Source: Halichondria panicea
Lineage: Eukaryota
Assembly (NCBI RefSeq): GCF_963675165.1
Contig: NC_087378.1
Location: 270,562-334,561, forward strand
DNA: 64,000 nucleotides
Direction of reading: 5' to 3'
In this document: in pieces, positions 12,038 through 60,919 of the stretch
How positions within the stretch are numbered: the stretch's first letter is position 1
Layout of the letters: the number at the start of each line of letters is the position of its first letter
Notes under the pieces: model-generated
Databases searched by the model: none
What the model was told of the DNA's origin: nothing
Seen by the model: the letters and a program-made list of their open reading frames with translations, nothing else
Program-made: the position numbers and the translations under genes

Positions 12038-27471
<15,434 letters not shown>

Positions 27472-38461: not shown

Positions 38462-41400
38462 ATGGGTGTATGGTGGAGCAAAAGTCAGACTGGTAAGTTG
38501 TCTTTAGCAGGCTAGTACATGTCTGTAAAATTCATCACATCGCTGCAATATTTATAATGACTTTTTACTTGGTTAGTTTATATGTAGCTGTGCATCTCTC
38601 ATTGGTAGCTAGCTCACAGTAGTTATGGTATGCTTATAAGCAGCAGTATTAGTAATATGCTCAGCAGCCACAGGTCTCATGCAAACACCATTCATTTACA
38701 TGCAGTATATGAGAAGATAGAGGCTGGCCTTCATGTGGACCTTGAGGAGACTCTCATCTCCCCCCCTCCTGGCTGCGAGACAGAGTCATGGCTAGAGTAC
38801 TCATTCAAGAGGGACATTGTCAGTGTACCCAGCTCCCTCAACGGCTCTTGGGTCGTACTAGATACCAATACTACAAACCACCTATTGCAATCCACCACAC
38901 CACATGGCAGTACAGAACAACTACAGCATTACAGCAGCACTGAGCAATCATACACAAGCTTAGAGGAAACATCGTACACCACCGTGCTGTCAGAAGAAGT
39001 CTCCTTGGAGGAGCTACAGTGTGAAACAAATAGTGAAATGGAAAGTTCTCTATTGACCTCAACACCGAAACAGGAAGGCAGTCTAACATTGGCTGAGTTG
39101 GGTAAGGAAACAGTCTCTTCCTCTCTGTATTCATTAGGCTGTATTCACCCAGTTTGAATGGCTGCCTGCCTGCCTGGTTGTGGTGTAACATGCATTCAGC
39201 TGAGTAGGCATGCTGACATGGCTGTGTACCCCAAACAAGCGTATTTAATAACAAGTGTAATGTGTAATCAAAACATTACACATTTTTATATTGTGTATTG
39301 CAGTCTTTTAGTCTAGGTGTCCAGCTGTTGTCACCTCATCATGATTGTTCATGTACACAGCTGTAGGGGAGTGTAGGGATGGCGTGTTTCTAGACACTGG
39401 GTCACTGCAGAGGACTCCAGTTCATTGCACCAAACCTTTCCGTACCAACAGAAGTTTAACCTTCAGTGGCACTGATTCACCTAGTAAGTTTGTCTGTACT
39501 TTTAGGGTAGTAGTACACTGATGTGGTACACTAGAAAGTATGTTCTGGTTACTAATGTTGTTTATTTCTTTGCAGGACATTCCCTTTACTCTGGAGCCAG
39601 TGTGCTGTCCATGGGCAGACCATTCTCCCCAAACGGTGGTGAGTTGTGTTGCTTTGTCTTTGAGGTCAGCTGTTGGAAGTGGTCCATTTACCATGGGCTG
39701 TTTATCACTGCCATCAGATTGTGTTGACAGGAGCTAGACACTTAGTACAGTGCCTCTTTGCTTCTGTTGTGGCTATGGCTGCCACAAGGAATTCACCACT
39801 GTTATGTAAGGTGACCTGTTCTTCCCCCAGGTGACTGTCAGTCTCTCACTGCCTCCCTACTAGCCTTAAGCACCTCTTCTGAGAAAGGGCTCTTCATTTC
39901 CCGGCTCCTCCAGACCCATCAGACCACCCTCACACAACAGATAAGACCTAAGGATGTAGCCAAACAGCTCTACAACCTCGCAATCCTAGACACAGCTGAA
40001 ATGAACAGAGCTAGGAGCAGTGCTTTAAACGAGACTGACAGGGCTAAAGCTATTGTGCTGTATCTACAAAAGAAGCTTAGATACAAGCCAGAGCTCTTCT
40101 CTGATGTGTGTGCAGCTCTCAAGAAAGCTGGAGTGGAGATCATTCAACAGATCAAAGGTTTGGTGTAGTTTACATCCTTACATGGCTGCCCTTTGTTGTG
40201 TCTGTGTCTCAGCTGTTGTATTGAGGGTATTGCTCTAATGTAGCAAAGTGATAGGGTGTAGCACATGTTCCATTAGTTGCCAAATACTTCAGTTATTGAC
40301 TAATCAAACTTTGTTTATAAATTAACACACTTAAATTTTCTACAGCTGAAGTTCGCAGCAGATATCCTGATGACTCTGACCTCACAAGGAGCATGTCTGT
40401 GCTTAGCAGAGCAGATCTTATGTCTTCTTGTGAGTTCCTAATTTGTACCATGTGTTGGTTTACAATAGAGGCCCACTGGAGGGTATAATGCTTCATTGAT
40501 TGTGGTACACCATGTTTTGATAACAGCTGATCTGATAACACTGCAGATTGTGAGCCTTTATCATCCATTAGCAGCCAGAGCAGCGAACAACACTTGGAGA
40601 ACACTGTAAGTACTTGTTGAGGGTCTTGTTATATTATGTTACATGCTTTTGTGTACAGGGCGTTTCCCTCGAGGAGGCTTGCAGAGATGGTCTCTTGGTA
40701 ACAGCTAAGCTAATTATCTCCAAAGAAGTGTCTAGGAATGTGAGTATCACTGTAGCCAGACTGCAATGCCTTACCACTAACCTGTCCAGAATGGCCCCAC
40801 TCTCCTGTTAGAAGCGTGCAGACTAGAGGTGAATGTGTGTGTGCTCAATATGCTGCTCACTGAGGCCTCTCTGGACACCAACACCATCACTCAGGTACAC
40901 ACCTCGTGTGCATAGGACCAATCACCAGTATATGATAATTATACCTACGTATACTATAGTATAACAGGACCCCACTCCACACTGCCACTGCTGCTCTCAC
41001 ACCCCAGACCTCCTCACAGGAACTACAGGTAATGTAACTATATCAGACCAACTCCCACTGTATTGATGCCACCTCTCCACAGGCCCACCAGAACCAGCTC
41101 AGGCAACAGAGGATGAAAATTGAGAACCTTCTAAAGCATGAAGCAGACCCAAGTGCTAAGGATGATGTAAGTCAAGTTTTATAATCCTTGTATTGCTTAT
41201 CACTGGACTGTTTCTATATACAGGATGGCAACACTGTTCTCCACCTTGCTGCTCTGAGGAGAGACACTGAGACCGTGGCTATTGTCCTGAGATACAGTAC
41301 TACTTGCATCGACCTCATCAATAAGGTGAGTATATATACCTCATTGACTGTATCCATTGTATGACCTTTGCCCCCCCCCCCCCCTCCAGCGAGGCAACAC

Positions 41401-42150
41401 AGTGCTTCACATTGCCTGTCATGAGGGTCTCACTGAACTAGTCAAGTTACTGTGTGCCAAGGGAGCCAATGTTACCATGCCAAACAACACCAGGGTGAGT
41501 GAGTTCATTGTGTATCTATCAACTTTCCCCTCTACAATAGTTACTTGTACAAACACTATAATGGTACACTGACTGTATGATATGACCCACACACACACAC
41601 ACTACATCACCTACAGGAGCACAAGACTCCCCTGCACTATGCCTGCTACTGGGGCAGTGTAGAGTTGGTGACCCCTCTCCTCAGCAGGGACTCCTCATGC
41701 GAGTACATGAATGCACAGGACGGTAATCAAGACACTGCTCTGCACATTGCCAGTCGCTGTGGACACAAGGCCATCATCAAGCTACTCGTGTCCAGAGGGG
41801 CAGCTAAAAGAGCCAAGAACAAGGTATTTTTCTACCACATTTCAAAATTAAGAATTTTAACTTAATTAGCTTGAATTCACACTAATTAACATGTAATACC
41901 ACTCTTCAATCTTTGATCATCACCTTATGTTGTGTGTTTTAATTATGTATTCCTGTCCCCCTCAGGATGGCAAGACCCCAGTAGACCTGGCTATTCAGCA
42001 CGAGCATAAAAAAGCTGCCAAAACGCTAGAGAAGAAGAGCCCGTGGTTGAAGAGACGCCGCACCAGGTCCAGTGGAGCCACCTCTCCCCTGAGAGTGGAT
42101 ATTGGACATGAGGCTCTGTGTGAGAGTGACTGTGACGAGACTATTAATTA
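38462..42150 (+). CDS. Gene A, ~15 exons. It comprises an MG-start micro-exon (MGVWWSKSQT), a Ser/Thr-rich region, a death-fold (DD/CARD-like) domain, and 4 ankyrin repeats.
   Basis: Exon 1 is 38462-38492 with a GTAAGT donor. Death-fold exon ~39832-40160: GDCQSLTASLLALSTSSEKGLFISRLLQTHQTTLTQQIRPKDVAKQLYNLAILDTAEMNRARSSALNETDRAKAIVLYLQKKLRYKPELFSDVCAALKKAGVEIIQQIK. ANK exons: DGNTVLHLAALRRDTETVAIVLRY..., RGNTVLHIACHEGLTELVKLLCAKGANV, EHKTPLHYACYWGSVELVTPLLSR...DGNQDTALHIASRCGHKAIIKLLVSRGA, DGKTPVDLAIQHEHKKAAKTLEKK. Stop TAA at 42148-42150. Confidence 0.65.
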
Positions 42151-42593
42151 ATTGACTGTGTGTTTGTGTCACTAAAAAAAATCATTACACCATTTTGCGT
42201 ACCTGCTTTTGCTTGCAGGTTTAACTGTCTGTTCAGCTCTGTTTGTATTTTTGTATTCTCATCATTATTATTTTTGTGTGCATGTACTATTAGGAGTGCA
42301 CATGTACTCCTGGCACTATTTATACTATTTTTGTGTCTCTGTACAGTGGAATCACATTCATTTTTTGTCATGTGCACAGCATTAACTATATTCATATGAA
42401 ATCTTGTAAAGATAAAGAATATTGACTACAAAGAGGAATTGAAATATCAAAAATAATAAAGCAATCTAACAAGCTATGGGGAACAGATGGTCCAGACACA
42501 GTAAGGGAAGTAATTGGTGCAAGCCCAGCAGAGTTTGTAAGCTTAGCTGTATATTGATAATCTGCATATTGATAATCTGCATGTGCTAACAAT

Positions 42594-43319
42594 TTGGCTC
42601 CTGTATACATTACAGAGGAGGATACTTCGGCTTCTCTGCCACCACGTCTGCTCAACAGTTCACGGCCTCCCCCTGTCCAACGAGCCAACAGTGATCCAGT
42701 CAACTGTCCAATCCCTTCACCCACTCCTGAAGAACACATTCAATTCACACCTTTCAGTTTCATACTACCAGATAATGCACTCTCTGAACCTTCCCTCAAA
42801 CACCCGCCCACCACCCTCCCACAACCCACACACACACACAACGATGATGATATTGAGCTGTCAGTACGAGATGAAGGTGATGAATGGTGGAGTATCAATC
42901 GTAGGCTTGCAGCAGACGCAGTGGCGGCCACTCCCAACACTAGCAGCTCTGAGGGCACTGACCAGGGCAGTCAGACAAACACCTTTCAATGCTCATATCT
43001 TGGAATGCATAGCTTCACCATTGGCTCGAGGGAACCACAGTCAATAGAACAGAACACAACAGAACAGCAACTACAGGAAGATGTTGTATTGGAAGAAAAT
43101 AGCCATTCAAAAAGCAGCCAAGAGCAAGGACACTCTGTGAGCGTTGGTGGGAGTAGCCACATGCCTGCAGTGTACCTTGGCATGAACAGTTACATCCTGA
43201 CCAAGGAGGAAGAGCTGGAGGAACCAGAATGCAATGATGATAAAACCACTCAAAGTCATGAGGAGTCAATTAATTACAGTAGCTACAATGCTGTTTATCT
43301 GGGAATGACATGCCATTAA
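42594..43319 (+). CDS. Hypothetical low-complexity ORF (241 aa) with three (A)VYLGM(H/N/T) motifs and a Ser/Pro/acidic-rich body. It may be a separate small gene or an alternative terminal exon (acceptor ttacag at ~42620).
   Basis: Long ORF in non-repetitive sequence. The repeated motifs SYLGMHSF, AVYLGMNSY and AVYLGMTCH are spaced ~60 aa apart. Confidence 0.25.
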   Translation: MAPVYITEEDTSASLPPRLLNSSRPPPVQRANSDPVNCPIPSPTPEEHIQFTPFSFILPDNALSEPSLKHPPTTLPQPTHTHNDDDIELSVRDEGDEWWSINRRLAADAVAATPNTSSSEGTDQGSQTNTFQCSYLGMHSFTIGSREPQSIEQNTTEQQLQEDVVLEENSHSKSSQEQGHSVSVGGSSHMPAVYLGMNSYILTKEEELEEPECNDDKTTQSHEESINYSSYNAVYLGMTCH

Positions 43320-44405
43320 TTGTTCTGTTTTTGGATTTACTGTGTCTCAATAGCTGCATTGTTACTATTGTATTGTTGATGTGTACAACACCTTGTTTCT
43401 ATCTCTACCACAATGTTATGTCAAGAGGAACTCTTGGTCATGTGCAAACACAAACCCTGGGACTTCCCCGATCCCTAACTCGCTAGCTATATAGCTGCTT
43501 CTATCTATGCTGCCACGAACAGTCAACTACTAGCCTAGGCTAACCTGAACACTCCTTTGGCAGTTGATACATCAAAACAACAGGTACAATCATTGATACA
43601 ATAGCTACAAAAACTGATAAATAGCTAGCTGGTGTCATTAAGCCTTCTAAAGTTAACTTCAAAAGGGGGGGTCAAGGGACCCCATGGACCCTCCTCTGGA
43701 TCCGCCACTGATAGCCTCCGATCCCATCTTCAGTGCGGCCTGGAACGAGGCTAGGCATACCGTAGCGGGTTATTTTCGAGGCACTAAATTCGAACAAAAG
43801 AGGATTTTATTCTGTGTGGTCAATCCTCCTCGAAAACCTCGAAAATTTTGTGCCTCGAGCTATAACGGACATACGTAGATACTTGCTCATAATTAAGTGC
43901 CTTAATTTATGAGGCATTAATTTATGAGGCACTGCACTAAAGCAAGACTACTCGAAAATTTGAATTTACTTCCCGTATTGTACTCTATATACTGTAGGGG
44001 TATGAACCTCCATCCTTGCCATCCTTGAAAATAAAATCTTTATTTGAGGCGAACAAATTATAACTAAAACGAATGTTTCAATGGCTCCTACTATAGACAC
44101 CTACCGTATACGTGGAAAATTGGTCGGTTTTTAATTTGGCGGATTTACAAGATCGCAATTAGTAGACACAACACCATTGCAGCAGTAGCCACGCCTGAGA
44201 CGACAAGTCAGTTCAAATGCATTATTTGCCAAATCCACCAAAATTAATTAATAATAATATTGTCCAGTTATAATTAGAAAAAACTGCTGTTGATGAATTT
44301 GTATGTACATGTTACCCTCTTCTACTCTACGTCTTTTTCTTATAGGGATTCGGAACTGCTCTCGCATTTTTGTAAGAGTCAGCTATCCTGCCTTCTACCA
44401 AAACA

Positions 44406-46205
44406 TGGCTTCTAAGCCAGCTCCTGGAAGCAGCTACCAATCTATTGAATACCAAACGATGGTCAAGTGTGCTTCTTCAAATTTAAATTGCATTAAATCA
44501 TCACCAAACACCATTGGAACAGCAATGTTCGGAGAAGGCTACATCTCCGAGTATGTCAGAGATATTGTTGGTTCTACGAGTGTATCCGGAGTCGACAAAG
44601 CACAACAGCTTCTGAATACCATAACCGATCGTGTAAAAACCGATCCCCTTGCTTACAATGGCTTTGTTGAGATCATCAGAAATGAAGGTACATGGGCATG
44701 TTGTTATTTGGAGCAACTTCAGAAAGTCTATGAGGAGCTTAGCCTTGAAGCACAACAAATTGAGGAACAGTGCTTGAGTGATTCTGATAATTCCTTTCAT
44801 TCCCTCCCTGACGAGTTATCTTCTCTCAACATAGGTGCAGATGTTACCTCACAAGGATTCATTTGTCCTTATTGTAAAAAGTGCTCTCCCGAATCTTCTT
44901 TTGAAAATGATTGCCCACATGCTGAAGAGACAGAGAAGCTAGAGTGCAAAGCTTTCTTCCCATTTTTAGATTGCTCTAAAATTGATCCTGAAGATAAGAA
45001 AGATCTAGAATGGCACCTTCTTCAAGATTATCGAAAGATTCTAAAGTCTTACGCTCGCCTGGAAAATTCACTAATCAACTCTCTTGAATCTCGTGAAGTG
45101 AACATTGAAAAACTTGACAACTTTGTTTGGAATCTCGTAGAGCCACCTCAAACACAGCAGCAGAAAAAAGTCGAAAAAGCTGAAACGGTGACAGCAATAT
45201 TTATACGTGTACGTCCTCACAAATCGTTCTTCAATTATGATATTGTAGAAGAAGTTTCAAAAGAGTTCGGGACACCTGCCGATAAGAAATTAGTTGCCGA
45301 GTATGTAGCTGCCTTGAATGAATACTGTAAACGCAGTGTGTTTGAAGTTCCTCCTGTCTTTATTCATAATGCCTCCGAAAGGAATGATTGCAAACAGTTT
45401 GCTTTTAAATACACTCCAGGAAACCCTGTTACACTGGGAGACGTTCAGATTATACGTAGAAAAATTGCTTCTATTCTTGGGATTAATGTGAGACTGTTGA
45501 AGCTTTGTTCTATCGAAAAAGGGTGTGTAAAAATGGTCTTCCTTGTGCCCGAGTTTGTTCTTGAAATTATTAACTCCATTTCTGTGAAACAGAGATCTGC
45601 ACTTACAAATCTCTGCATCAAAATTGTGCCAGTAATTGACAGCCGTCAACCACACTCAGATGCTATCACAGTTTCTGATAAAGTATGTCGCTTAGCTATA
45701 TGCATACATACTAGTATACGTAGCTGGTTTGTAGCTGTCTGTTTCATCCATATAACTCTTCGTTCACAGGAAGTTGAATCTCCAAAAGCTGACAAAAAAG
45801 GTCAGTCATTATTCCGAGGCGCGTGGGCGGTCACGGGTTATAGTATAGTCTGTTGGTTACATATAAGGGTGCAAGATTGGATCTTTATACCGCAACCAGT
45901 AAATTATGTATAATTGTGTAGTGATGCTGACATAATTTTATTATGGGGTGCTGTTTGTATCAAAATCCAAAAAGGGTTGATGGTATGAAATGGAGTCTAG
46001 CCGTAATCATGACATCTCAATAATCATTTCAGGTTTAGCCTCCTTCACTGGCCTCCTCTTCGAGAAAGTGCGGTCTAGGATCGAGGCTATTGCAGGCGAT
46101 GCTGAACAACTCAAGGTGCTGTTACGCAGCGATTATTCTGAGTCTGCCTATGGCCAGGATGGAATAAACATAGACATGATTAAGCCAGGTGATGTCAATT
46201 ACTAG
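44406..46205 (+). CDS. Gene B. A large first coding exon (44406 to ~45693) encodes an N-terminal helical, possibly death-fold, module plus a Cys-containing middle region. Small exons follow at ~45770-45810 and 46031-46205. The 3' end shares an exon family with gene G. The gene may extend downstream or be spliced to gene C.
   Basis: MASKPAPGSSYQSIEYQTMVKCASSNLNCIKSSPNTIGTAMFGEGYISEYVRDIVGSTSVSGVDKAQQLLNTITDRVKTDPLAYNGFVEIIRNEGTWACCYLEQLQKVYEEL.... The last exon GLASFTGLLFEKVRSRIEAIAGDAEQLKVLLRSDYSESAYGQDGINIDMIKPG is homologous to gene G exon SDAEKLKLLLPPMNYSVFNKDGVNIDFVEPG (46095-46300 is ~85% identical to 61143-61340). The apparent stop GDVNY* may in fact be an intron donor (CCAG|gtgatg), as in gene G. 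Confidence 0.45.
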
Positions 46206-46616
46206 CAAATAGGACACTTATTGATGCATGATAACACAGTTGCCAACACTGCGGACACCAACCTTGAAATCAGTGATGATTCTGCAGTTTCAGATAAAGT
46301 GTATGATATTTATCGAAGCGTAGCTGCACAAGGGATATACCGTATACGTAGCGCTAAATTTTTTCAAGGGGTTTAATTTTTGCTGTTTTCGTAGGTTAGC
46401 AATCCTACATAAAAATAAAGTCCACGAAAATTGTTCTGTAATTAGAATTATCAGCTAAAACTTAAAGGCGTGGCTTCCAGTAAGCAGTCATCCCACAAAC
46501 ATTGTGCAACGAAATGCTTTTAGAGGCTATTCCAAATTTTGCGCTTACGATATATACAATAAAGCTGACTGTGTGTCTGTTTTGCAATAGATTTGTCGTT
46601 GAGGGTGGGTTGTGCC

Positions 46617-49005
46617 ATGCAACCTACCATCCCCGAACCAGAAGGTTATATTGACTCTGAGCAGCCAAAACCAAAGCCTGTTCTCCCAAATGGTAAGAGT
46701 GCTCATGCATTTGTGACAAAATAGGTTCACAATCTTTTCACCATTATTTTAGAAACTGGAGAAAGTATGGTCGAATTCATATACAGACGAACCAAAGACA
46801 ATTATGTTCGATTGACAAGTGACATCCGTAGGCTAAACCCTCACCATGTAGCGGTGTACCTGTTTCAGAATAACCTGATTGGCATGGAGGAACTCAACTA
46901 TTCGGCTAACCTATACCGTGAAGATAGTGTCAAAGCAACTCGATTAGCCAATGTAATCTTCACCTGCGACCTCCCTCACCAGTTCCAGGCTGTCCTGACG
47001 GCATTCGAAGAAGCTGGAGTTGAGACTGTGACAGAGATTGCAGGTAAATATTAAGCGTTTTTTAGTTTGTATTAATTTTAAGCTGTTGCAGCTGAAGCGA
47101 GAGATCTTTATCCTGATGCCTTCCTTCCTTCCTCTGATCCAGAGACTCCACTGAGTCAACAGGTAATCATTGTATGACTTGTGTATGTATGGTAATATAA
47201 TATAATTGTTGACCTTGTAGAATAAAAACTTAGAGTTTGATCAACTTAAAGAAAAGATAACGCAAGTGTCAGCTGATGGAGGTGGTGGTCCCACAGCAGC
47301 TATAGCATACATTAACGAGCTGGTTCATCCAAAGGTTGGTTACGGATAAACTCTCACGCACCGGTATTTCACATGCAAAGCTATTGGTGGGTGTGGTTTC
47401 CTGGCATTAGAAGAACCCACAAAAATTAATTTATGTTGAGGGCTCTGGAACAAAATAATAGTAAAAAATTTCCCACTATATACGGTAATATGTTGTGCAG
47501 GAGAGGGAGTTGCTGCTTCACAAGGCCAGTCATGGCACCACTGACTTGAATACCTTCAACATTGTGCTCCTGTCTACAGAGGCAGCATTGATCAACTTTT
47601 CAGATGAGGTAAAATAATAACAGCTGTATAAGTTATTTGATGTGTTGTCTAACCTCAGAGAGTCAACCAGAGGACCCCACTCCATGTTGCTTGTGCGTGT
47701 CTGCCTGATACTCGAGACGACATTAAGACTAAGCAACAGTTGTCAAAAATCGACAGCTTATTGAAGCATGAAGCTAAAGCTACACTGCAAGACATTGTGA
47801 GCTCATGTTATACACACACTGCTAATAATGACGTGTCTACAGGATGGCAACACCCCCCTACACTTGGCTGCACTACGCGGTAATGCCAAAGCAGTGTCAT
47901 TGATTTTGACGCTTGATCCAGACTCCAGGAACATAGCAAACCATGTGAGAGATAATGTATTAGCTGCGCACATGAAAATAATGATAACATAATATATATC
48001 ACCCTGTGTTCTTATGTACAGCTTGGTAACACAGCATTACATATAGCAAGTAAGAAAAACTTCTTGGAAGTGGCCCGAGCTCTGTGTGCGCACAAGGTGG
48101 ATGCTTGTCTATCCAACAAGACGAAGGTTGGTGAAGGGATCGGTGTGTGAGTGTGTATATTGGGTAATGTTGGCATATAATTACAGAAATCACGTACTCC
48201 TTTGCATCAAGCTGCGTCCAATGGCCATTTGAAGATGGCAAACATGATCCTGGAGTATGAACCCAGTTCAGCAGTGTGTGTTGACAAGGTTTGTTCGGAT
48301 ATTGTCATGATACCATAATGATTAATAGCTTTATTTTGTAGAAAAACATGAGCCCTCTGCTACTGGCTGCTAAGTGTCGCAAGGTGAACATTGTTGAGCG
48401 GCTGGTCAAGAAATCTCTGTGTCCAGTTTTTGTAATTGATAATGTGAGTTCTAATTTTTTGACATGCCACAGGCTAGATTAAATGTCTCCCTCACTCCAG
48501 GAGGGGAGGACCCCTCTCCACTTTGCCTGTGCCTGGGGTAGCTACGAACTTGTTGAGCTTCTCTTGAAAGCAAACAGCTCGAGAAATTTCGTCAACCACA
48601 AGGACAACAAGGGAGATACTGCATTGCATATAGCCGGTCATCATGGTGATACCAAGGTCTGGAAACTTCTGTGCTCTAAGAATGCCTCCAAAAAAGCAGT
48701 CAATGATGTAAGCTTTTATACAGTACTCTATATGTATCATTACCATGAACCACTCTAGTTTGATGAGACACCTAAGGAGGTAGCAGCCAATGCTGGTCAT
48801 CACTCTCTTCCTTATAGAGGACGAATAATTAAAAAAGTTACAAGGAAGATTCAGAAGAAGATATCAAAGCAGCCTACCCTAAGCTCCTCTCAGTCGTGTG
48901 TGTCCCTCAGGTCTACTGCCAGTGCCCTGTCATTCCAGTCCACCATCTCTGCCAACAACTACCTACAAACTACCGAAGAAAGCGACCTCGATGAAACTGT
49001 GTGAA
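46617..49005 (+). CDS. Gene C, ~13 exons: a CARD/death-fold domain followed by ~8 ankyrin repeats and a basic/Ser-rich tail.
   Basis: CARD-like exon 46750-47052: ETGESMVEFIYRRTKDNYVRLTSDIRRLNPHHVAVYLFQNNLIGMEELNYSANLYREDSVKATRLANVIFTCDLPHQFQAVLTAFEEAGVETVTEIA. ANK exons: RVNQRTPLHVACAC..., DGNTPLHLAALRGNAKAVSLILTLDPD, LGNTALHIASKKNFLEVARALCAHKVD, KSRTPLHQAASNGHLKMANMILEY, KNMSPLLLAAKCRKVNIVERLVKK, EGRTPLHFACAWGSYELVELLLKAN...KGDTALHIAGHHGDTKVWKLLCSKNASKKAVND. Last exon ...ETPKEVAANAGHH...ESDLDETV*. The first exon has an upstream AG acceptor, so fusion with gene B transcripts is possible. Confidence 0.65.
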
Positions 49006-49242
49006 CTGTTTATTTATTATTATTTCTCGTCTGATGTTTTTATGTCTTTGTACTCGAGTACTCATGCTATATATGCAACCAATGCATCTATATATTTTTA
49101 CCTAGATGTTTTGATGTGGACATAATACATGTAATGTTATTATCTGGAATAATTATTGTAAATTACATGGCTGACATAAAAAGTGCTAGAGACACAAAAA
49201 GTGAACAAAATTGAGTGAAATGAACAGTACTGTGATAGTCCA

Positions 49243-52200
49243 TTATAGAGGCTCTCCACCAGCTGGGGGGATGGTATGGGCGGAGCTAGTACTCGTCAGC
49301 AGAGAGTGGGCGGAGCTAGTACTCGTTAGCAGAGAGTCTGTCGAGGACATCCTTGGAAAATGATCTCTTCTTCTACTATTGAACAATCCTCTGATGCCCT
49401 TCTTGGGATGTGGGGGATGACCAGCATTTACCCCAGCCTCCTTGGCAGTCTCACCAGCCTGTACATAATACAGAAGGGGCGGTAAATAGCATCAGCCACA
49501 TAAACTTGCAAAACACATGATATATAATACAACTTAGGGGGAGGGGAAGCCAACAACAGTTACACAGTTACACTAGTTGTACATGTACTTACTTTGTTTG
49601 TGATTTTCTTGGATGCATTCTTTGACTTGAGTAGGGTGACTATATCACAGTTACCATGCCGATAAGCTAAGTGTAGGGCGGAGTCTCCGTGGTTGTCTTG
49701 AGTGTTTATGTAGGAGTGAGATGAGTCAGTCTTGAGCAACCAGCCCACCAGTTCACTCTCCCCCCACTCACACGCATAGTGGAGGGGGGTACGTCCATCC
49801 TACAGGGGGAGGGAAGGGGGGTAGTGTACATGCATAGTGGAGGGGGGTACGCCCATCCTACAGGGGGAGGGAGGGGAGGGGGGTAGTGTACATGCATAGT
49901 GGAGGGGGTACGTCCATCCTACAGGGGAGGGGGGTAGTGTACATGTACTATAGGTATTGTTAATCATTAACCATTTAGAGGACATGAAAGCTGTTCATAC
50001 AATGCTTACACTCGCAGTGTAGTGACCTTACACCCCTTATTATTATATGCAACAATGGAACAGCTGACTCAGAGCACTACACAATAATAGCTTCTGTGTG
50101 GGTGGAGAAACTGCTGAGTCATATTATAGTGAATATGGTACTAGTGGGTACAATAGCTCACAGCGTCAGGCCAGGTGACTGGACAGTGTTGCTGACTCAA
50201 CAAGCTAACAGCCATGGCAGCAGAGCGATGTTTCAGGGCAAGATGCAGCGGCTGCATTCGTTTCTATGGAAGCAAGGAGGCACATGAGATAGTTGGGCCT
50301 ATCACATGACAATGGCTTACCCCATCAGTACAGTCCACCACTCCAGGGTCATAGTTCACCAGCACCTCCACTACTTTAGTGTGTCCCTTCACTATGGCTT
50401 GGTGTAGTGGACAACGCTGCTTCTATAAGAGGGGGTGAAGGGTTGGTACAGGGTCATCAATATAACTAGCATACCTTTGTTCTGTTGAGCAGTCTTGCAT
50501 TGGCTTGATGCTCCAGTAGTACAGAGATGACACTAAGGCGTCCTTCTCTACAGGCTATGTGCAGTGAGGTGTTGCCCAGCTGCACACAGTTAAAGACTAT
50601 GAATACACGTTTTAAGTACATTCACACTTTCACAAGTCTAGCTGGGGGGGACACAGCTGGTTGTAATTACTGGGTTAGGAGTGCTCTGGCATCATGAATC
50701 AACTTGGAGGTTGACAGAGCAAAGCAAACAGGAACACAAGGAACTTAATTCAGTTCCTAATAGAAAACCCTGGTCAATGGCTTCAATACAATACTCATAA
50801 ACAGGAAGCCTGGAACACACACACACACACACACACACACACTACCACAACTCACGTTGTTGGCAATGTCCCGGCAGGTTGGGGTATTCTTGAGAATGAG
50901 TTTAACACAGTCTGCATTGTTGTGCAAGGTGGCCAGGTGCAGTGGAGTGTTGCCATCCTATACATGCACATAGCAACAATGGTGAGGCTAGCTAGCACAC
51001 GGTGAGCACATGTTACCTTATCAGGCAGAGTGCAGTCTGAGCTGAGACTGAGCAGTTTAGTGATCTTGGTTTTCTGTTGTTCCTCAAGCCAGCGAGTCCT
51101 CTCATTGATAGTCAGTGGGAGGTAGGTACAAGCCACGGCCAGCGGTGTGCGATCATCTAGTCTCTGTGGATACAATCAAAGAATCACTAAAAGCAACAAC
51201 AAACTCACTAGTTTAAACCATCCACTAAAATAATCTCCTGAGCGTGCACAACAAAGCTATAATTACACTACAAATGCACATACATTGGAGTGAAAAGAAA
51301 ACATGTTAAATATTGATTGGCTGACCTCATTCCTGTGATTGACCATGTTCTTGTCGACATTCATTAGAACAATGTTGAATGTGAACACATCAGTGCCCTG
51401 TGCACACGCCTCATGTAGCAGCGACCTGCTGACCTATACAGAGACAGAGGGGGGGGGCAGGGTAAATAGCTATTGTAATTTATAGGCAGTAATGGTCTAA
51501 TATCACACAAACACCAACCCACCTCCCTGTCTGGATCTTGGTCGATGTGTCCCTGCAAGAATCTCACAGCTGCCAGGAAACCATCATCTCTGAACGTCCT
51601 CCGTGTCTCCATCAGCTGTAGTAACACGCACATGACACATCATGTACACACCAACACAGGAACTGACTCACAATGCTCTCAACTGGACTGTCTTGCAACG
51701 TACTGGTTGAGATGTAGTCGAGTTGAAACCCTTCTGATGGTAATCTCCCAGATCCACCTGCAGTTGATAGTACACATACACGTTCACATTATGTTATGAG
51801 CTCAACAATCAACGCTTACAGTCGCTGTTGGAATTACTGGGATGTCTAAATGAGTCCAGATCACAGCGCAGGTTCAGTGAGCGGCCACTCCCCACGCTGT
51901 CCGCTACCTCAGGAAATGCCAGTGACATAATCTCTCTAGACTCCACACTGGCAGTCCTAGTGGTCCTAGACTCAACACTGGCAGTCCTAGCGGTCCTAGA
52001 CTCCACACTGGCTGTTCGGGACTTGTCCCTAGGCCGAGACTCGAGGCTGGACAGAGGGGAGGTATCTTGTAAGAGGGGCCCAGAGTCTGCACTGGAGCTT
52101 CGGGTGTGCTGAGGACTGGAGGGACCTGGGTCACATGATAATGACTCCTCGATAATGCTAGGAAGGGGACCGGGATCAAAGAGAAATCTGGATCTTGGCA

Positions 52201-52498
52201 ACTCTGGATCACTGGGACACTTGTGTATTGGCCTGTCTGCAGAGCATGGCTCTCTTGAAGGACCTGCATGTACGTAGTCAACCACTAGCTACAGTAAGAG
52301 TTGGGTGGGTACCTGTGTGAATATCCTCTGACACAAACACCTCACAGCTCTCCTCTATCCCAGGTCCAATAAGAAGCCAGCCCTCAATCTCTTCTGGTGG
52401 GTGGTGGCTGGGCTCTGCAAGACAGGTTCCATCATACACTGCACACTATATATCATGACAGCTAAATAGTCTTACCTTGCTCTTGTTGACTGATAATG
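49243..52498 (-). CDS. Gene D (minus, convergent with gene C). It has an MG-start micro-exon (MGGIISQQEQ at 52498-52468), a Ser/Pro-rich region with SRTARTASVE x3 repeats, at least 6 ankyrin repeats, and a tail paralogous to gene C.
   Basis: Minus-strand exons: KQRCPLHQAIVKGHTKVVEVLVNYDPGVVDCTDG, DGNTPLHLATLHNNADCVKLILKNTPTCRDIANN, DGRTPLHYACEWGESELVGWLLKTDSSHSYINTQDNHGDSALHLAYRHGNCDIVTLLKSKNASKKITNK (compare gene C EGRTPLHFACAWGSYELVELLLKANSS...), last exon AGETAKEAGVNAGHPPHPKK...SLLTSTSSAH x2...*. Stop at 49243-49245. Confidence 0.55.
49263..49330. repeat. In-frame 33-bp tandem duplication (GGGCGGAGCTAGTACTCGT(C/T)AGCAGAGAGT x2) inside the last coding exon of gene D.
   Basis: Read directly. 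On the minus strand it encodes the duplicated SLLTSTSSAH. Confidence 0.8.
49801..49945. repeat. ~62-bp tandem repeat x ~2.5 in a gene D intron. Each unit re-copies the splice acceptor (ctgtag on the minus strand) plus the first ~26 nt of the following ANK exon (GATGGACGTACCCCCCTCCACTATGC).
   Basis: ctacagggggagggaagggggtagtgtacatgcatagtggaggggggtacg(t/c)ccatc is repeated. The authentic exon start is the first copy at 49800. Confidence 0.75.
50813..50842. repeat. (AC)15 microsatellite.
   Basis: acacac run. Confidence 0.9.
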
Positions 52499-52721
52499 CC
52501 TCCCATGATTCACTGCTTGGCCTGGCTTGTCAAACTTGTAGATCTTCAGTCAATAGTGCAACAAATGGAGCCTGCATAGGATGCTACACTGCAGTGACTG
52601 CTCAGCTAAAATGTACGGTAGTACAGTACAGTAGTATTGTAGTGAGAAAGGTCAGCAGTCAGCAAGAAGTCAGCAGAGTGAAAGATCGTCAGTGGAACAA
52701 ACCGTTTCAGTTGTATCATAT

Positions 52722-52749
52722 GATACAGTACTGACGTCAGTACTGTATC
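52722..52749. promoter_or_regulatory. Perfect 28-bp palindrome GATACAGTACTGACGTCAGTACTGTATC centred on a consensus CRE/ATF site (TGACGTCA), ~225 nt upstream of the gene D ATG. An E-box CACGTG lies at ~52795.
   Basis: Read directly. Position is relative to the minus-strand start at 52498. Confidence 0.4.
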
Positions 52750-52761
52750 ATCTATGTTGTA

Positions 52762-54298
52762 TCATAGATAGAAAAGGGAGGGATTGGAAACGAATCACGT
52801 GTGCCGAACACTCCTTGTCTGCCGGAAGCATAGATCAAAGAGGGAAGTGATCACTACTTATACTTCCTCAAAATAAAAATTGTGTTCCAGCCAGCTGATT
52901 TCGAGTATATGGCTTTCAAATTCTAGTTCTCAAGAATGGCTTTCTAGCTCAGGTCTACATTTGCACTGTACAATGGAAAGTAGTGCTCCTGCTCCATTTC
53001 AGAGTAAGTGATGTTGAACTGTTTGTTAATAATAAATAATAATTAATTACTTTCCATTTACTTTCTTTCCTTTTCATGTAAATGCAGGTAGGTTTAAGGA
53101 AGCTTTTATGACTGTTTTGACAGAGAGTACATAGATTCAAAGCTTCATCACCAGAGGAAGCAGTTGCCCTCAACACAGCTTCTGCGTTGATAGTTAATTT
53201 CGTTGGAGGGTTCTGAACATAGTGTGATGGTTCGGGCTGAAATTCTACTCAGAATTGAAGTCGTGACACTCTGCAGCATCATTTAATTATCATGCACAGT
53301 TAAATTTATAGAATTGAACAATAATTTATCACAGTTAAGAATTGAACATTCAATGTGATTGAACATGTTATGGTTGTGCCTTCTTTTGGGAAGGGGTTAT
53401 TCTCATCACCTAGCTGCAATGGTCGCCTTCTATTGTCTTTCAGCAGTTGCCTCTAATTGTTGCACATGTGCTGTTGATCACCCGAAGAGCCTGTGTTCTT
53501 AGCAAATTCACTAACATTCGGGTTCTCGTTGGATTTACCCCTATGTCTTTGTTGGCCAATTTAACGGGGTCCTGGCACAACCTGTTGCTGATGACTCCAG
53601 GTATTGTGAACAGATATCTAACCATCTCCACAAATGACCTCACTGCAGGTATTGTTATAAAAGTATAGTGTGGGCAATAATCAGTATAGCATGCTTACCA
53701 GTAATCCTAAATTCATTCTTTCGTGAATGACGATTCAAAATTTTCACGGCATTTCTGTAAGTGCAAACAAAGACAATGCAAAACTTCAAATACTCCTCTA
53801 ACAGTATATTAGCAGAATATATTCAACTAGCCCTTTTTAGAGATGAAAAAAGGAGACAAAAAACACTCCTGAAATACTTTATTTATTGATATAGTACAAA
53901 AGTTTCACTTGTATCATTCAAAAAGTAATACTTACGCAAAGCACTAGGACCCAAGTATACAGTTTGACACAGGTACAAACTGCAAATCAGCTTTACATAT
54001 GTGCTAGAGGGAGACATAATTTTGACTATCACCTTACCCTACAAAACTGGCCTATTATTCTGCTTCAACTCTACTGAAGTAAGTTTCTAACTTACCAGGT
54101 ATGAATACAGTTAAGCCACGGACATCTGGCCTAACCCAGAAGTCTAAGTTAGACTCTAACAACGTCTGCAAGAACTGAGTCAGAGAAAATCTTTGTTACA
54201 ATCCCGCCAGAACGTGATTACGTAACAAGACAAGGAGTGTTTCAACGGATATCATTGAAATTGTCGTTCGTTTCCAATCCCTCCCTCTTCTATCTATG
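52762..54298. mobile_element. ~1.54-kb non-autonomous TIR DNA element with no transposase ORF. TIRs are at least 33 bp (CATAGATAGAARAGGGAGGGATTGGAAACGAA), extending imperfectly to ~60 bp. It is flanked by a 7-bp target-site duplication GTTGTAT (52755-52761 and 54299-54305). It is inserted in the divergent gene D / Pol lambda intergenic region.
   Basis: Left end ...ctatGTTGTATcatagatagaaaagggagggattggaaacgaatcacg. Right end cgttcgtttccaatccctccctcttctatctatgGTTGTATattc. Interior ORFs are short. Confidence 0.55.
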
Positions 54299-54441
54299 GT
54301 TGTATATTCAGCATAAGGTGGGGAAAGGTCCTCAAAAAAACTAACTGTCTCGAAGGGAAGCCGCGGAATGCCTTTGTGTACCTATGAGAGGGGTGGGGCT
54401 GCTTGGTGGTCAAGAAGCTTTCTAGCCCCTTACAACAAGTG

Positions 54442-57114
54442 ATGAGTAACTGCTCAACAGGTGACTATCTGAGTGATGTGTGTGCGGTGATTGTGAAACA
54501 AGGAGTGGGGAAGGCCAGGGCTGACATACTCTCAAGACAGCTAGTCGCTAATGGAGGAAGGACAAAAGATAGCCTTGATAGTACAGTGACTCACGTCCTA
54601 GTGGGTAACAATGTCCGTTTGTCTCGTGTGCCACACTTGATGAAACTAAAGCAAGTGCCTGACAATGTTCTAGTACTGAGAGCTGATTGGCTGAGTGCTT
54701 GTCTAGTGGAAGGACGAAATATTGGTCACGTTCAGTACATCGTACCCCCGGAGTCCCCCGTCAAGATAAGCCACACCCCCTCTCCCATCAAGCCATCACC
54801 CTCGACTACAGTAACTAAGAATAAAGTGCCAACACCTTCAGAATCTCAATCAGAAATTGTCAAAATAGAACCAGATTCTACCTCCACTCCATTGGACGTA
54901 CCTCATGACCCACCCTCTACACCACCAGACACATCACATGACCCACCCTCTACCTCTAGCATGACCTCCCCCAAGGTAAGGGGGTACTACTTGCTCTCTC
55001 ATGTCCATCACTCTTAGTCCCCCTCACAGGCTGGCATGTTCAGAGTGACTGACCGTCGCTGGAAGGTGCGGCTGGAACCACACAGAGCCAAGGGACGGTG
55101 GGAAGATGCGGACTCTGATAGTGATTACTCAGGGGACGAGATGGAGGAGACAAAGGAGGAGAGAGACAAGGTGAGGCATGCTAGTACATGCTTGAGATGT
55201 GTGGTTTGATAGTAGCAGTTGTGGTCAGGGCATGTCACAGCATGCCAGAGCATTGATCATCATCCCTCACAGCGTGTGGAGTTTGCCAAGCAAGAGGTGG
55301 CTACCTCCTCCCTAGCCTTGATCCCAGGCCGCACTGAAGGCCTTGTGAAGGAGGCTACCTCCTCCCCTGCCAAGAAGAAGGTGTGTGGGTGTGTGAAGAT
55401 GGTGGGTGGTGACGTTTGTGTATTGCAGGGACGGTGGATTTGTGAGATGCCGTCCTCAGAGATCAAGGAAAGAGTCAACCTTAACAAACACATCACTGAC
55501 AAACTGGAGGTACGTGCGCCGTGTCTTGTATGACCTAAACACTCCCTACCCATGCACACAGGATCTGGTGAGTGTGTACCAGAATAGTGGGGACAAGTGG
55601 AGGGCACTGCAGACCAACAAAGCAATCCAGTCCATCAAGAGACAGACCACAGAGATCACCTCCTATGAGGTAGACCAACTAGTAGAGGGAAGAGGAATTC
55701 CTTTTCAATTTGTATTCTGTTTCTCATACAGGAAGCTCGAGACCTGCCGTTTGTTGGTGAGCGGATAGCTAACAAGATTGATGAGATTATCTTCAGTGGT
55801 GGTCTCAGACGATTAGAGCACGTGGACAAGGAGAAGGAGGCGGTCCTCACCACTTTCATGAACATCCACGGTGTAGGGAAAGTCATTGCACACCAGTTCT
55901 ATGCTCAGGTGAGAGCTCCAACTAGTACGTACATCTCCAGGGTTATTGCTTATGCTCTTTGTATGACAAAGAACCAAATTCTGGTACTAACTTAGCCCCC
56001 CTCCTCACTCATGCATTGTCAGGGCTACCGTACTCTTGATGAGCTACGAGACAGTGGAGTGCTCAATAGACAGCAGACGATTGGCCTGAGGCACTTTGAT
56101 GACTTTAACGAGAGGATGACTCGGGATGAGGTGGCTGAGATCGAGGAGAGGGTGAGGGTGGTCTACTAGTAGGCACACTGTCAATACTGTACACACCTCT
56201 ATTGAACATACTGCCCTAACTAAGATCCCGTATCGTGGTTGAGATCACTTAGTTGTAGCTACTGATTTCCCTACAGAGCGCTTGTAGACTCTTAAGTGTT
56301 GTAACAAGTGTTGTCTCTGTGCAGGTAAAGGAGTTGTGTGTGTCCATTGTCCCGGGCATAGAGGTGGTCACATGTGGTTCGTATCGCCGTGGCAAGTCCA
56401 CCTGTGGAGATATTGACCTCCTCATCACTCATCCTGATGGCCGCTCACACAGAGGAGTGTTTGAACAGCTGCTAATACAGGGGAGGGAGGTGGGGTTCTT
56501 CACAGATGACCTCTCTGTACATAATGACCCCGGGGGACAGTGCAAGTACCTGGGGGTGTGTCAACTCGGGCCAAATAGGAAGGTAGATGATCCTTATTAT
56601 GCTCAGACCCTATACCCTAGTACCCCCTCCCCTCTCCTCACATAGTATCGTCGTATAGACATCATCCTGGTACCATACAACGAGTTCCCCCTGGCTCTGC
56701 TCCACTTCACTGGTTCAGGCCACTTCAACAGATCCATGAGGAATAAGGCCGATAAGATGGTGGGTCCATACCCTAACCAGTCATGTCATTGTTTATTGCC
56801 TCCTCCTATAGGGAATGTCCCTCTCAGAGCACGCCCTGTGTACTGGAGTCATCAGAAAGGTATTGCTCTACACCACATTGTCTGTGCACGCACGTACAGT
56901 GTACATATATGTTCAACCTTATAATTATAGTTACCACTACTTTACAGTAGCTTATTATGTCGAGTATACACACAGTATTCACTTCTTTCTACCCCCTGTG
57001 CAGAATGGGGCTAAGATATTTGATGGTACCCCCCTCCCTGTGACCTGTGAGAAGGATGTGTTTGACTACCTCAACACAGAGTACAGAGTAGCCACTGAGA
57101 GAGACCACCCATAA
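54442..57114 (+). CDS. POLL: DNA polymerase lambda (family X), with a BRCT domain, a Ser/Pro-rich linker, an 8-kDa lyase domain and the polymerase domain. ~10 exons. The start is assigned to ATG 54442 (the track ORF begins at a TTG).
   Basis: BRCT region [36 protein letters not shown]...HVLVGNNV...[19 protein letters not shown]. Then HITDKLE|[36 protein letters not shown]|[59 protein letters not shown]|[43 protein letters not shown]|[52 protein letters not shown]...[11 protein letters not shown]|[38 protein letters not shown]|[16 protein letters not shown]|[36 protein letters not shown]. Colinear with human POLL, including the catalytic Asp triad context. Confidence 0.85.
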
Positions 57115-57429
57115 GCTAGAACTAGTGAGTAGTGCAAATCATTCTTGAACATAAACAACACTCTGGAGTTATAATTTTGATCACATGCTTTGTTGCTCAA
57201 ATATTCATGTTTTATTTCGGTTTGTTCAAACAACTATTGTCCAGTAGCATTGTCTAGAGATATTACAGCTGCAGTTGATAATGCTTGTGTCATCACTTTC
57301 TCTTTACTTGCTAGCGTTAATCACAGCCATATTCGACAATGAATGCAATATTGACAAATGGTTTTAATGTCAGTACAGCATTTTAGACGGCAAAAATCAT
57401 CAATTCTCATTAGCAACCCTTAGCCGAAC

Positions 57430-59612
57430 ATGGGTATTAACCTAAGTCAAAGCAAGCAAACAGGTAAGTGTCCCCTATATACTAAGTGTTGGTACCTGGT
57501 GCTGCATGATCTCACTCTCCAAGGCTTCATTGACGAGAGTGGAGAATACAACCAGGAGTGTTGGCATGAGTGGGTGCTGTATCACAAATCCAAGTCACTA
57601 CCTGCCTCGTTGGATCGTGGGTCAAGTACTCTCAATGAATTTGAAAGGCTATCTAGCAAATCTGAGCCGCCTACAATAAAACGTAAGAAAGCTCCAACTT
57701 TTACAATTGGTCCTGCTACCAACAACTCGCCAGAAAGTGACTCCGACAAAGAGTTAGAACCACACATTCTTAATGGTGAGATTCTCCGCATTTTTTTGCA
57801 TGATTATTCTAAGTATACACCATTTTTGCAGGCGTATACTGCATACAGAAACCAGATGTGATTGATATTACATCAGCAGGGGCAATGTATCCAACAGTTA
57901 AAGATCAAAAAACAGCCTTTGGTGTCAATTTTGAGGTTCCCAAAGGAGCTGTTCCGACCGATGCTGCTACATCGTTAGAAGTGGCTGTTTGTCTCAGTAT
58001 CGGTTCGAGCCAATACCCAGAGGACACCACTCCCATCTCCCCCATCCTCCAGCTACATCCCAAAGAAAACTTCAAGCTCCTGCAGCCGATCACTGTCACC
58101 ATGCCACACATACTCTCTGAGCCCTCTGATATAGGAGTCATGAAAGCTGTGACCACGGAGGACCGGTTTGAGAAAATCGATACAGAAATTACTCTTGGGA
58201 ATAAAGATGGACATGGAACAGCTACTTTCCGTTTGGAGCACTTCTGCTACATACAGCTGTACACTAAACTAACACCCGATACAACAAAAACAATTCGCTA
58301 TTGTATTTTTCCAGTTCTACCCAGGAAGGTTCCCTTTGATGGGTCGTTTATGCTGTACTTCTGCATAAGTTATCATATGAAAGAATGTCGTGAGGTAAGT
58401 ACACTCTAATTATGTATACTGACTCCTTGAGCTAGTGTTTCTGTACGTACAGGCAATTGAAGATCAGTGTAAGAATATAGCAAAGCTCAAGGAGCATGGC
58501 CATGAACTTGTAGAGGACAAGCTTCAACCGTTTTTGTTCAAGCCTGAAGCCAATAGCATCAGTGCTACCTGTACTAGACCCAAACAGAAATCAGGTTGGG
58601 AGTGGAGAAATCTCAACGGAGAAAGAGGAGTGAGTTTAGTATATTATACAAGTCATGTGCTTTTATTGTTACATAATTATGCTAGTGTACAATGAAGTTG
58701 ATTGTACATGTATGCTTCCCCAGATTGTAACAGAATCAGTCAAACCATGGAGCATGGACCCTGCTAATCTGAAGGATGAAGCTAACAGATTTCTCTATCC
58801 CCCCAGCTTTAAGGTAGAGGTACGGGGCTCCGGAAACAGAACAAGTCAAGATGAAATCGTTATGAATTTCTCTGGAAATACCGAGACACCTCTTCCAGAT
58901 ATTGGTTTTTACCTACCAGGTAGTATAGGGTGTGTCATGACTGACATTGATGCTTTGATTGCCTTAGGGAATAATGCTGCCTTGAATCTAGGAGACCATG
59001 ACAAATCGCATCTGTCGTTAGGTGGGACAAGTTGCATATGCTCTATTATTGTAATTAGCTCCAATTCATCCAGGTTCAACTGTATACGACTCAGCTACGT
59101 GTACCACACAAGAATCAGTTCTTAGGACTAATTATGAGGACATCATCTCAATGGTTTCACAAGATACGCAGGGTGTTGCTGACAGCCTGTTCTCCAAAAG
59201 GCTTATCGAAACACCAATCCGAGATGACGTGAGGGATGATCGCAGAGGTTCCAACAGAGACAGGGCAAGAAAAATTGTGGACAACATATTTGATAGGATT
59301 AAAGGAAAACATATCAATTACGAGCAATTTCGTACCTTTTTGGACATTCTTGCTTCTCAAAGTCAAGAAAACAGCCAGAAAATAAAAGAAATACTTGGTA
59401 ACTTGTAATTAACGTGCATTTGCTTAATTTTGTGTATCAATACAGATTCGGATAGAGAGAATTTGAGTCCCACGATTGAAACCGACGATCTAGCCAGCTC
59501 TTTAGATTCAGTGTTTGAATTTGAGGCCCCTCCTTCTACATCTGACATTCCCGGGTCCAGTGGTAGCAGTGACAGTGAAGAAACTCATCGTCGTATCACT
59601 CAAGGACAATAA
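57430..59612 (+). CDS. Gene F. It has an MG-start micro-exon (MGINLSQSKQT, 57430-57463), a linker exon, a ZU5 domain and UPA-like region (57830-58396), further exons, and a C-terminal death-fold (DD/CARD-like) domain.
   Basis: ZU5: AFGVNFEVPKGAVPTDAATSLEVAVCLSIGSSQYPEDTTPISPILQLHPKENFKLLQPITVTMPHILSEPSDIGVMKAV. UPA-like: GTATFRLEHFCYIQLYTKLTPDTTKTIRYCIFPVLPRKVPFDGSFMLYFCISYH. Death-fold: SQDTQGVADSLFSKRLIETPIRDDVRDDRRGSNRDRARKIVDNIFDRIKGKHINYEQFRTFLDILASQSQENSQKIKEIL. Stop at 59610-59612. Confidence 0.6.
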
Positions 59613-60602: not shown

Positions 60603-60919
60603 CATGTTACTGTAGCTAGTAAATGAACAATCAAAGCTGTTGGTTTTATTTGTGCTCAATCATCATTGCATTGTCTATAGCATAGCTGTTGTAAGAATTA
60701 ATGTATTATTTTGGCCTTCACAATAAGTGTCATTTGAATTCATTGTGGGAACATATTGTTAGCAGGTGTTTACCCTATTCATTTTATGCTCGTCACGTTT
60801 TGCATGACCTCTTAGAATAACTATATTCATGTGCCAGACATCGTATATAGCTAACCAACTAGCTGCTGATCTGTGAGAGTATACAGCTGTGTAGAAACAA
60901 TACTTTTTTGGAAGCCACC

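Follow-up and report, generated by a model that had tools for sequence, protein, structure and literature searches.

We analysed a 64,000-nucleotide window of the genome of Halichondria panicea (NCBI RefSeq assembly GCF_963675165.1, contig NC_087378.1, positions 270,562 to 334,561, forward strand), in which four neighbouring genes, designated A, B, D and F, each open with a separate first coding exon of only 8-11 codons. These exons encode Met-Gly-x-x-x-Ser-(Lys/Arg/Gln) followed by a polar stretch, and all four place serine at residue 6 (with Met as residue 1), match the PROSITE pattern PS00008 and end at a phase-1 GTAAG donor (Table 1). An earlier note on this DNA had described such Met-Gly exons in genes A, D and F. 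Direct reading of the sequence confirmed all three, together with their fit to the N-myristoyltransferase (NMT) consensus, and required two corrections: the exon of gene D, placed at 52498-52468, was 8 nt off and lies at 52506-52476, and the serine, placed at residue 5 or 6, is present in all three but always at residue 6. The fourth exon, that of gene B, was absent from the earlier note and was found by scanning both strands.

The scan covered window positions 8001-64000 and searched for ATGGG with a PS00008 match, an open frame and a phase-1 GTRAG donor 21-45 nt downstream. Four matches were obtained, all within 20 kb, versus a mean of 0.18-0.28 expected from Markov simulations of order 1, 3 and 5 (300 each; P(≥4) ≤0.003). 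The signal is carried by four of the approximately six cluster genes and by none of the other window genes for which a start was identified or searched for. Gene C, a cluster gene without a Met-Gly exon, provides a contrast case; its RefSeq paralogue LOC135330889 starts with MASMSAPRSS, and at two loci holding paralogues or homologues of gene C (L006 and L007) we found neither A or B orthologues nor a convincing Met-Gly exon. Each of the four ATGs has a purine at -3 and G at +4 and is preceded at two or three codons by an in-frame stop, so that the reading frame cannot be extended upstream within the exon. These stops, at 38456, 42467, 52512 and 57421 in H. panicea, are absent from the orthologues in two more distant sponge sequences (L004 and L005, described below); that all four genes share them may be due to chance (~4e-4, a rough estimate) or may guard against N-terminally extended products in which Gly2 would be hidden.

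Table 1. Positions of the cluster features within the 64,000-nucleotide window
Feature	Position	Strand	Description
Gene A, first coding exon	38462..38492	+	ATG GGT GTA TGG TGG AGC AAA AGT CAG ACT G, then gtaagt; MGVWWSKSQT + G; donor GTAAGT, phase 1; in-frame TAA two codons upstream
Gene A, 15 exons	38462..42151	+	Met-Gly exon, Ser/Thr-rich linker exons, weakly CARD-like exon, ankyrin-repeat exons
Gene A, internal exon with decoy MGRPFSPNG	39576..39638	+	63 nt, phase 1-1; in RefSeq protein as ...HSLYSGASVLSMGRPFSPNG...
Gene B, first coding exon	42476..42500	+	ATG GGG AAC AGA TGG TCC AGA CAC A, then gtaagg; MGNRWSRH + A; donor GTAAGG, phase 1; in-frame TAA three codons upstream
Gene B, second exon	42616..43319	+	Continues the phase of exon 1; 234 codons without a domain, including three YLGM motifs
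Gene C, start	44405..45913	+	Begins MASKPAPG, without Met-Gly exon (contrast case)
Gene D, 13 exons	49243..52506	-	Met-Gly exon, acidic-Trp exon, Ser/Pro-rich linker, ankyrin repeats
Gene D, first coding exon	52476..52506	-	ATG GGA GGC ATT ATC AGT CAA CAA GAG CAA G, then gtaaga; MGGIISQQEQ + G; donor GTAAGA, phase 1; in-frame TGA two codons upstream
Gene F, first coding exon	57430..57463	+	ATG GGT ATT AAC CTA AGT CAA AGC AAG CAA ACA G, then gtaagt; MGINLSQSKQT + G; donor GTAAGT, phase 1; in-frame TAG three codons upstream
Gene F	57430..59612	+	7-exon model, 570 aa: Met-Gly exon, linker, ZU5 exon, UPA-like middle, weakly CARD-like C-terminus

Spliced models of genes A, B, D and F were built by hand, and for two of the genes the Met-Gly start is the annotated one. 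The RefSeq protein 'ankyrin-3-like [Halichondria panicea]' (P0171), of 673 aa, was rebuilt exactly from 15 window exons starting at 38462, and its N-terminus, MGVWWSKSQTVYEKIE, is that of our gene A model. Similarly, the 614-aa model of gene D equals RefSeq XP_064383746.1 exactly, with the same Met-Gly start. RefSeq names this protein 'probable serine/threonine-protein kinase DDB_G0278535'; Pfam finds ankyrin repeats only and no kinase domain, and the name is probably a transfer artefact. Genes A and D are paralogous over their ankyrin part, with 32-35% identity. A further candidate start at 39611 (MGRPFSPNG) was rejected, since it fails PS00008 (R3, P7) and the RefSeq protein places it within one of the internal exons of gene A. 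Within gene D, a 58-bp unit present in 2.7 copies (49770-49931, minus strand) duplicates the acceptor and the first ~25 nt (GATGG.CGTACCCC..CTCCACTATGC) of ankyrin exon 12, making two decoy acceptors in intron 11.

The earlier note had grouped the products as death-fold, ankyrin and ZU5 proteins, a description that Pfam bears out for ankyrin (A and D) and, above the cut-off, for ZU5 (F), and that remains sub-threshold for the death fold (A and F). Gene A gave strong matches to Pfam Ank families; its linker exons are all phase 1-1 and its ankyrin-repeat exons phase 0-0. The note's 'death-fold protein' is an ankyrin-repeat protein, with a CARD-like segment present as a sub-threshold match on exon 39831-40157 (CARD_2, E=0.007, 16.8 bits, below the curated cut-off of 28.2). 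Six helices are predicted in this segment, but with a predicted local distance difference test score (pLDDT) <60, and a PDB sequence search returned no significant match to it. In the gene F model every junction is GT-AG and in frame. The ZU5 match (Pfam PF00791) scored 26.9 bits on the exon and 24.6 on the protein against a cut-off of 21, and 314 ZU5 relatives were present in a representative library; the CARD match scored 22.8 and 18.6 bits, below its cut-off of 23.9, and a phmmer comparison of the CARD-like segment with the PDB gave only E ~1, to the caspase-9 CARD. Upstream of gene F lies a BRCT/PolX polymerase gene whose 3' end is duplicated, 56700-57142 having been copied to 60264-60605 (+) with 94% identity, upstream of a second ZU5 gene (gene G, 61288-64000, +). 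Gene G shows 59% nucleotide identity to F over the ZU5 exon and runs off the window, within which no Met-Gly exon was found for it; the arrangement of a PolX tail followed by a ZU5 gene recurs in L004 and L005.

Gene B appears, from its sequence, to be an unannotated two-exon gene (42476-43319, +) encoding a predicted protein of 242 aa, in which no Pfam family was detected. Its three YLGM copies occur as CSYLGMHSF, AVYLGMNSY and AVYLGMTCH, and a YxxM-type pattern of this kind is known from PI3K-recruiting adaptors. The C-terminal 104-aa open reading frame (ORF) of the gene is on record as a mechanical ORF call only. Another short motif recurs soon after the Met-Gly exon, composed of an acidic residue, Trp, two hydrophobic residues and (I/L/Y): NGSWVVLD in A (38780-38870, +), EEIEGWLLIG in D (52340-52390, -), HEWVLY in F (57545-57580, +) and KDEWVVIE in the L005 orthologue of D (L005:1870-1900), with DEGDEWWSI further into gene B. 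It resembles a W-x-x-L/I/V short linear motif of the LC3-interacting region (LIR) type.

Conservation of the starts was assessed against two close relatives, L002 (NCBI GCA_022076545.1; 95% nucleotide identity) and L003 (98%), and against the more distant Tara scaffold L004 and L005 (ENA ERZ25070530). In L002 and L003, gene F starts with MGSNLSQSKQT and the Gly codon carries a synonymous GGT>GGC change. L005 comes from a more distant sponge and holds a syntenic cluster in the order ankyrin genes, PolX, three ZU5 genes, whose PolX exons are 57-97% identical to those of the window and whose ZU5 exon is only 48% identical. Met-Gly is retained there in both starts open to comparison. The L005 orthologue of gene D begins MGGIIGSVAPSKDEE (ATG GGG GGC ATC ATC GGC, MGGIIG...), and its MGGII codons differ from those of H. 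panicea only at third positions and synonymously (GGA>GGG, ATT>ATC). The orthologue of gene F starts MGNRQSRVKKKRETSKDKQT + G in L005 and MGNRQNKTKKKGETSKNKQT + G in L004, following the pattern MGNRQ[N/S][K/R].KKK.ETSK.KQT + G. In these orthologues the donor phase is kept, intron 1 measures 64 nt versus 60 nt in H. panicea and has a conserved 3' end (tgcatgatctca..cc.ag), and exon 2 again begins with G(F/Y). The ~85 residues that follow the first exon cannot be aligned between gene F and its distant orthologues, indicating that the first exon is more constrained than the linker behind it. Another ZU5 gene of L005 apparently starts with a 10-codon phase-1 micro-exon as well (L005:9503-9533), encoding MASSYRLFKR, with Ala2 (GCT) in place of Gly2.

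These comparative sequence data are the strongest argument that the micro-exons are true first coding exons, as the earlier note had proposed; as far as it can be checked, that proposal is borne out by the RefSeq starts of A and D, the conservation of D and F in a divergent sponge genome and the upstream stops. The Met-Gly exons are real and are probably the translation starts, being annotated (A, D) or conserved (D, F) as such, and their products follow the sequence rules for NMT substrates. The mature N-termini would be GVWWSK (A), GNRWSR (B), GGIISQ (D) and GINLSQ (F). In each of them Gly occupies position 2, residue 3 is neither charged nor aromatic, residue 6 is Ser, residue 7 is not Pro and the tail is hydrophilic.

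We therefore consider that the four exons encode predicted N-myristoylation signals, a reading to which we assign a probability of about 0.65; the suggestion of the earlier note that lipidation would tether the proteins to membranes is plausible. NMTs occur in all eukaryotes and modify Met-Gly chains during translation, once Met has been removed; in crystal structures of human NMT1, Asp471 makes a salt bridge with Lys7 of the substrate (PMC7048800). Gene A has Lys7. On this basis, methionine aminopeptidase would remove Met1 and NMT would add myristate to Gly2 during translation, with Ser6 in all four proteins and Lys7 in gene A fitting the substrate pockets of the enzyme. Myristate would then give these soluble proteins a weak, probably reversible attachment to membranes. 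No transmembrane-like segment was found in A, B, D or F, which leaves a lipid anchor as their only evident membrane route; 46 of 89 long ZU5 relatives do contain a transmembrane segment. In the distant gene F orthologues a Lys/Arg cluster adjoins the motif (KTKKK or RVKKKR, in L004 and L005) and would reinforce attachment. Lipidation and membrane localisation of A, B, D and F, and any part they may play in death-fold or innate-immune-type signalling, are inferred. A literature search on myristoylation, death domain and sponge returned nothing relevant.

Several points weigh against myristoylation. No Cys that could be palmitoylated occurs in the first 10 residues of any of the four proteins, and basic residues are few in H. 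panicea (K7 in A; R4, R7, H8 and K9 in B; K9 in F; none in D). Since myristate alone binds membranes weakly, attachment would be weak or switchable. AlphaFold single-sequence models of A and F had a mean pLDDT of 36-38 and are uninformative on the accessibility of the N-terminus. For gene F, a homology search with the model gave no hit, although related ORFs exist, and exact look-ups of five splice variants found no annotated protein. This absence, like that for gene B, is weak evidence, since the word-indexed search also missed ORFs known to be present. For gene B, exact look-up of the model retrieved no annotated protein, whether from RefSeq or otherwise full-length, and an AATAAA that could be the poly(A) signal of gene A lies 16 nt upstream of its ATG, so that B may be an ORF that is not expressed or may serve as an alternative 3' exon.

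The two points on gene B also favour the likeliest of the alternatives, which concerns gene B alone: its Met-Gly codons would be a chance ORF start in the 3' region of gene A, and the long ORF downstream either a terminal exon that gene A uses alternatively or a relic that is not expressed, in place of an independent myristoylated protein. The gene A stop is only 325 nt away, and the phase-1 acceptor of exon 2 would also fit the phase-1 donors of gene A. However, the ATG follows an in-frame stop by three codons, the GTAAGG donor is in exactly the phase that the 234-codon ORF requires, the NMT motif is very good (Asn3, Ser6, Arg7), the joint pattern would be expected only ~0.2 times in the whole window, and chance does not give three YLGM copies in one ORF. 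We regard this alternative as possible and keep it in view for gene B, while placing it below even odds.

A second alternative accepts the Met-Gly starts as real and holds that they are no lipidation signals, with Gly2 owed to the preference for G at +4 at initiation, or to a stability signal based on N-terminal glycine, and with PS00008 matched only incidentally. Further doubts about myristoylation enter here. Translation initiation favours G at +4, which is enough on its own to raise the share of Gly, Ala, Glu, Asp and Val at position 2, and four of four ATGs have the purine at -3 and the G at +4; PS00008 is a permissive pattern, which about one Met-Gly protein in five would match (an estimate from amino-acid frequencies). 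The L005 ZU5 gene with the same micro-exon layout and Ala2 indicates that Gly2 is not obligatory in the family, and N-terminal Gly can serve as a degron (Timms et al., as cited in PMC7048800). By contrast, Ser, the best-fitting residue, occupies position 6 in all four proteins with polar tails behind it, and Gly2 and a small residue 6 persist in orthologues whose adjoining sequence is beyond alignment. The presence of the signal in four of about six cluster genes and in none of the other window genes with a start identified or searched for, and the Lys/Arg cluster after the motif in the distant F orthologues, the classical partner of myristate, likewise weigh against this alternative, which we consider unlikely.

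How the exon came to recur is a separate matter. The earlier note suggested that a 5' micro-exon had been shuffled among the cluster genes, which would make it a mobile phase-1 start cassette copied between non-homologous genes. The exons would be splice-compatible with such movement, since each of the four ends at a phase-1 donor and phase 1-1 linker exons follow it in A, D and F, and the exon is found on at least three unrelated architectures (ankyrin, ZU5 and domain-free). Peptide likeness also extends beyond the NMT rules, with ...SKSQT in A resembling ...SQSKQT in F, and MGNRWSR in B resembling MGNRQSR of the L005 orthologue of F. However, MAFFT alignment of the four exons with 100 nt on either side yielded no shared blocks and no nucleotide similarity in flanks or introns, and the ATGs were not aligned. 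As paralogues, A and D can share the exon by descent, so that at most three origins are needed, and convergence is feasible for exons of 25-34 nt that are constrained by NMT. A single base separates Ala2 (GCT, in the L005 ZU5 gene) from Gly2 (GGT), so that one change can create or destroy the signal. Moreover, the recent duplication beside gene F, the copied PolX tail, stops before the place where a copy of its Met-Gly exon would lie. Shuffling is thus improbable; recent movement of one exon is not supported by the sequences compared and is unneeded for the recurrence, which is best explained by inheritance through duplication (A/D), retention under selection (D and F across species) and the ease with which Gly2 is gained or lost.

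Finally, the existence of upstream coding exons, which would remove Gly from position 2, is very improbable: B and F are without annotation, but the RefSeq models of A and D begin at these ATGs, the stops leave room for an acceptor only 6-9 nt from the ATG, where there is no pyrimidine tract, and the F and D orthologues retain the ATG-GGN start.

The window as a whole has introns of 50-150 nt with GT-AG ends and tightly spaced genes, consistent with the demosponge H. panicea. An ENA metagenome contig (ERZ26868619, L001; 138x coverage) carries the 536-aa ORF of window positions 44303-45913 within a locus 100% identical to the window, and another contig of the same metagenome sample encodes a protein identical (100%) to H. 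panicea RefSeq XP_064381912.1. Coordinate arithmetic places the end of this otherwise matching ENA contig near window position 18330, so that the assemblies differ there. Neighbours in the window include a Calx-beta repeat gene, SMC-like exons, a major vault protein gene, a PDCD4-like MA3 gene and the BRCT/PolX polymerase. At 1255-7457 (-) lies a tandem array of a 406-bp unit, with ~13 copies in two Tandem Repeats Finder (TRF) rows, 93-97% identical; the unit consists of one Calx-beta-like exon (MGTVTIIDDD...) and a short intron and recalls sponge aggregation-factor-type genes. The MGTVTIIDDD matches at 0.7-7 kb are internal Calx-beta repeat exons and were rejected as Met-Gly starts. A 27-bp minisatellite of 34 copies (23568-24489; 98% identical) is apparently located in an intron of the minus-strand SMC-like gene. 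ORFs for large multi-pass membrane proteins form a tandem pair at 17545-19470 and 21573-23430 (+), of which the second is broken by a change of frame at about 22.3 kb.

Taken together, genes A, B, D and F are best explained as a cluster of fast-evolving, cytoplasmic signalling-type genes. A wider proposal is that a demosponge phase-1 Met-Gly lipid-anchor exon is a reusable module that places ankyrin, CARD-like and ZU5 modules, and the YxxM-type scaffold of gene B, all otherwise soluble, on the inner face of membranes; we put this forward tentatively and think it doubtful. If it were true, the whole cluster would code for a death-fold or innate-immune-type signalling hub close to the membrane, and the myristate of gene F would functionally replace the transmembrane segment of about half its ZU5 relatives. 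If the prediction of lipidation holds, membranes would be the place where these fast-evolving ankyrin and ZU5 proteins of the sponge act, and the signal would offer a simple experimental handle on this gene family of early-branching animals. For annotation, the analysis adds an apparently unannotated gene (B), a gene for which no protein model was found (F) and a kinase name that is unsupported (D). The kind of signal is already known and its occurrence on these sponge genes is the addition, an ordinary one; as the Met-Gly signal is of the textbook kind, the gain is incremental and constitutes an annotation-level lead rather than a surprise.

The layout of the exons can be compared with that of secreted proteins. 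Signal-peptide first exons ending in phase 1 were reportedly used in metazoan exon shuffling, according to Patthy and co-workers, and the sponge genes likewise have a short N-terminal targeting exon that ends in phase 1 and is followed by phase 1-1 module exons; the predicted targeting, however, is by lipid to the cytoplasmic face and not for secretion, and there is no evidence that the sponge exon moved. Gene F invites comparison with UNC5, ankyrin and PIDD-type proteins, which have a ZU5-UPA-death-domain architecture, with a transmembrane segment in UNC5. In gene F, too, a ZU5 domain scoring above its Pfam cut-off precedes a middle region and a C-terminal segment, predicted to be helical, that matches CARD weakly, and approximately half of its long relatives carry a transmembrane segment as UNC5 does. 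Unlike UNC5, gene F is without ectodomain or transmembrane segment, which the predicted lipid anchor would replace, and its UPA region and death fold are only putative.

With regard to the membrane signal, Src and MARCKS are 'electrostatic switch' proteins that combine myristate with basic residues, and the L004 and L005 orthologues of gene F, with MGNRQxx followed by KTKKK or RVKKKR, display this classical combination. The H. panicea copies, by contrast, have lost most of the basic residues (one Lys in F, none in D), and A, B, D and F differ from Src-family SH4 regions in having no Cys for palmitoylation. TRAM/TICAM2, a TIR adaptor, and FRS2, a docking protein with multiple phosphotyrosine sites, are myristoylated signalling adaptors. 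They have no sequence homology to the sponge proteins; the likeness is that of soluble adaptor-type proteins drawn to membranes by an N-terminal Met-Gly signal, and gene B, domain-free with its three YxxM-type YLGM motifs, would resemble an FRS2- or DAP10-like scaffold, tyrosine phosphorylation being speculative. HIV-1 Nef is myristoylated and a validated NMT substrate, whereas lipidation of the sponge proteins is predicted only, and these ankyrin, ZU5 or domain-free proteins are unrelated to Nef. With such NMT substrates, exemplified by the Nef N-terminus MGGKWSKRS (PMC8440812), they nevertheless have in common the Met-Gly start, a small uncharged residue 3, Ser6, Lys/Arg/Gln7 and a hydrophilic stretch, and genes A (MGVWWSKS) and B (MGNRWSRH) share with Nef the W-S-(K/R) core.

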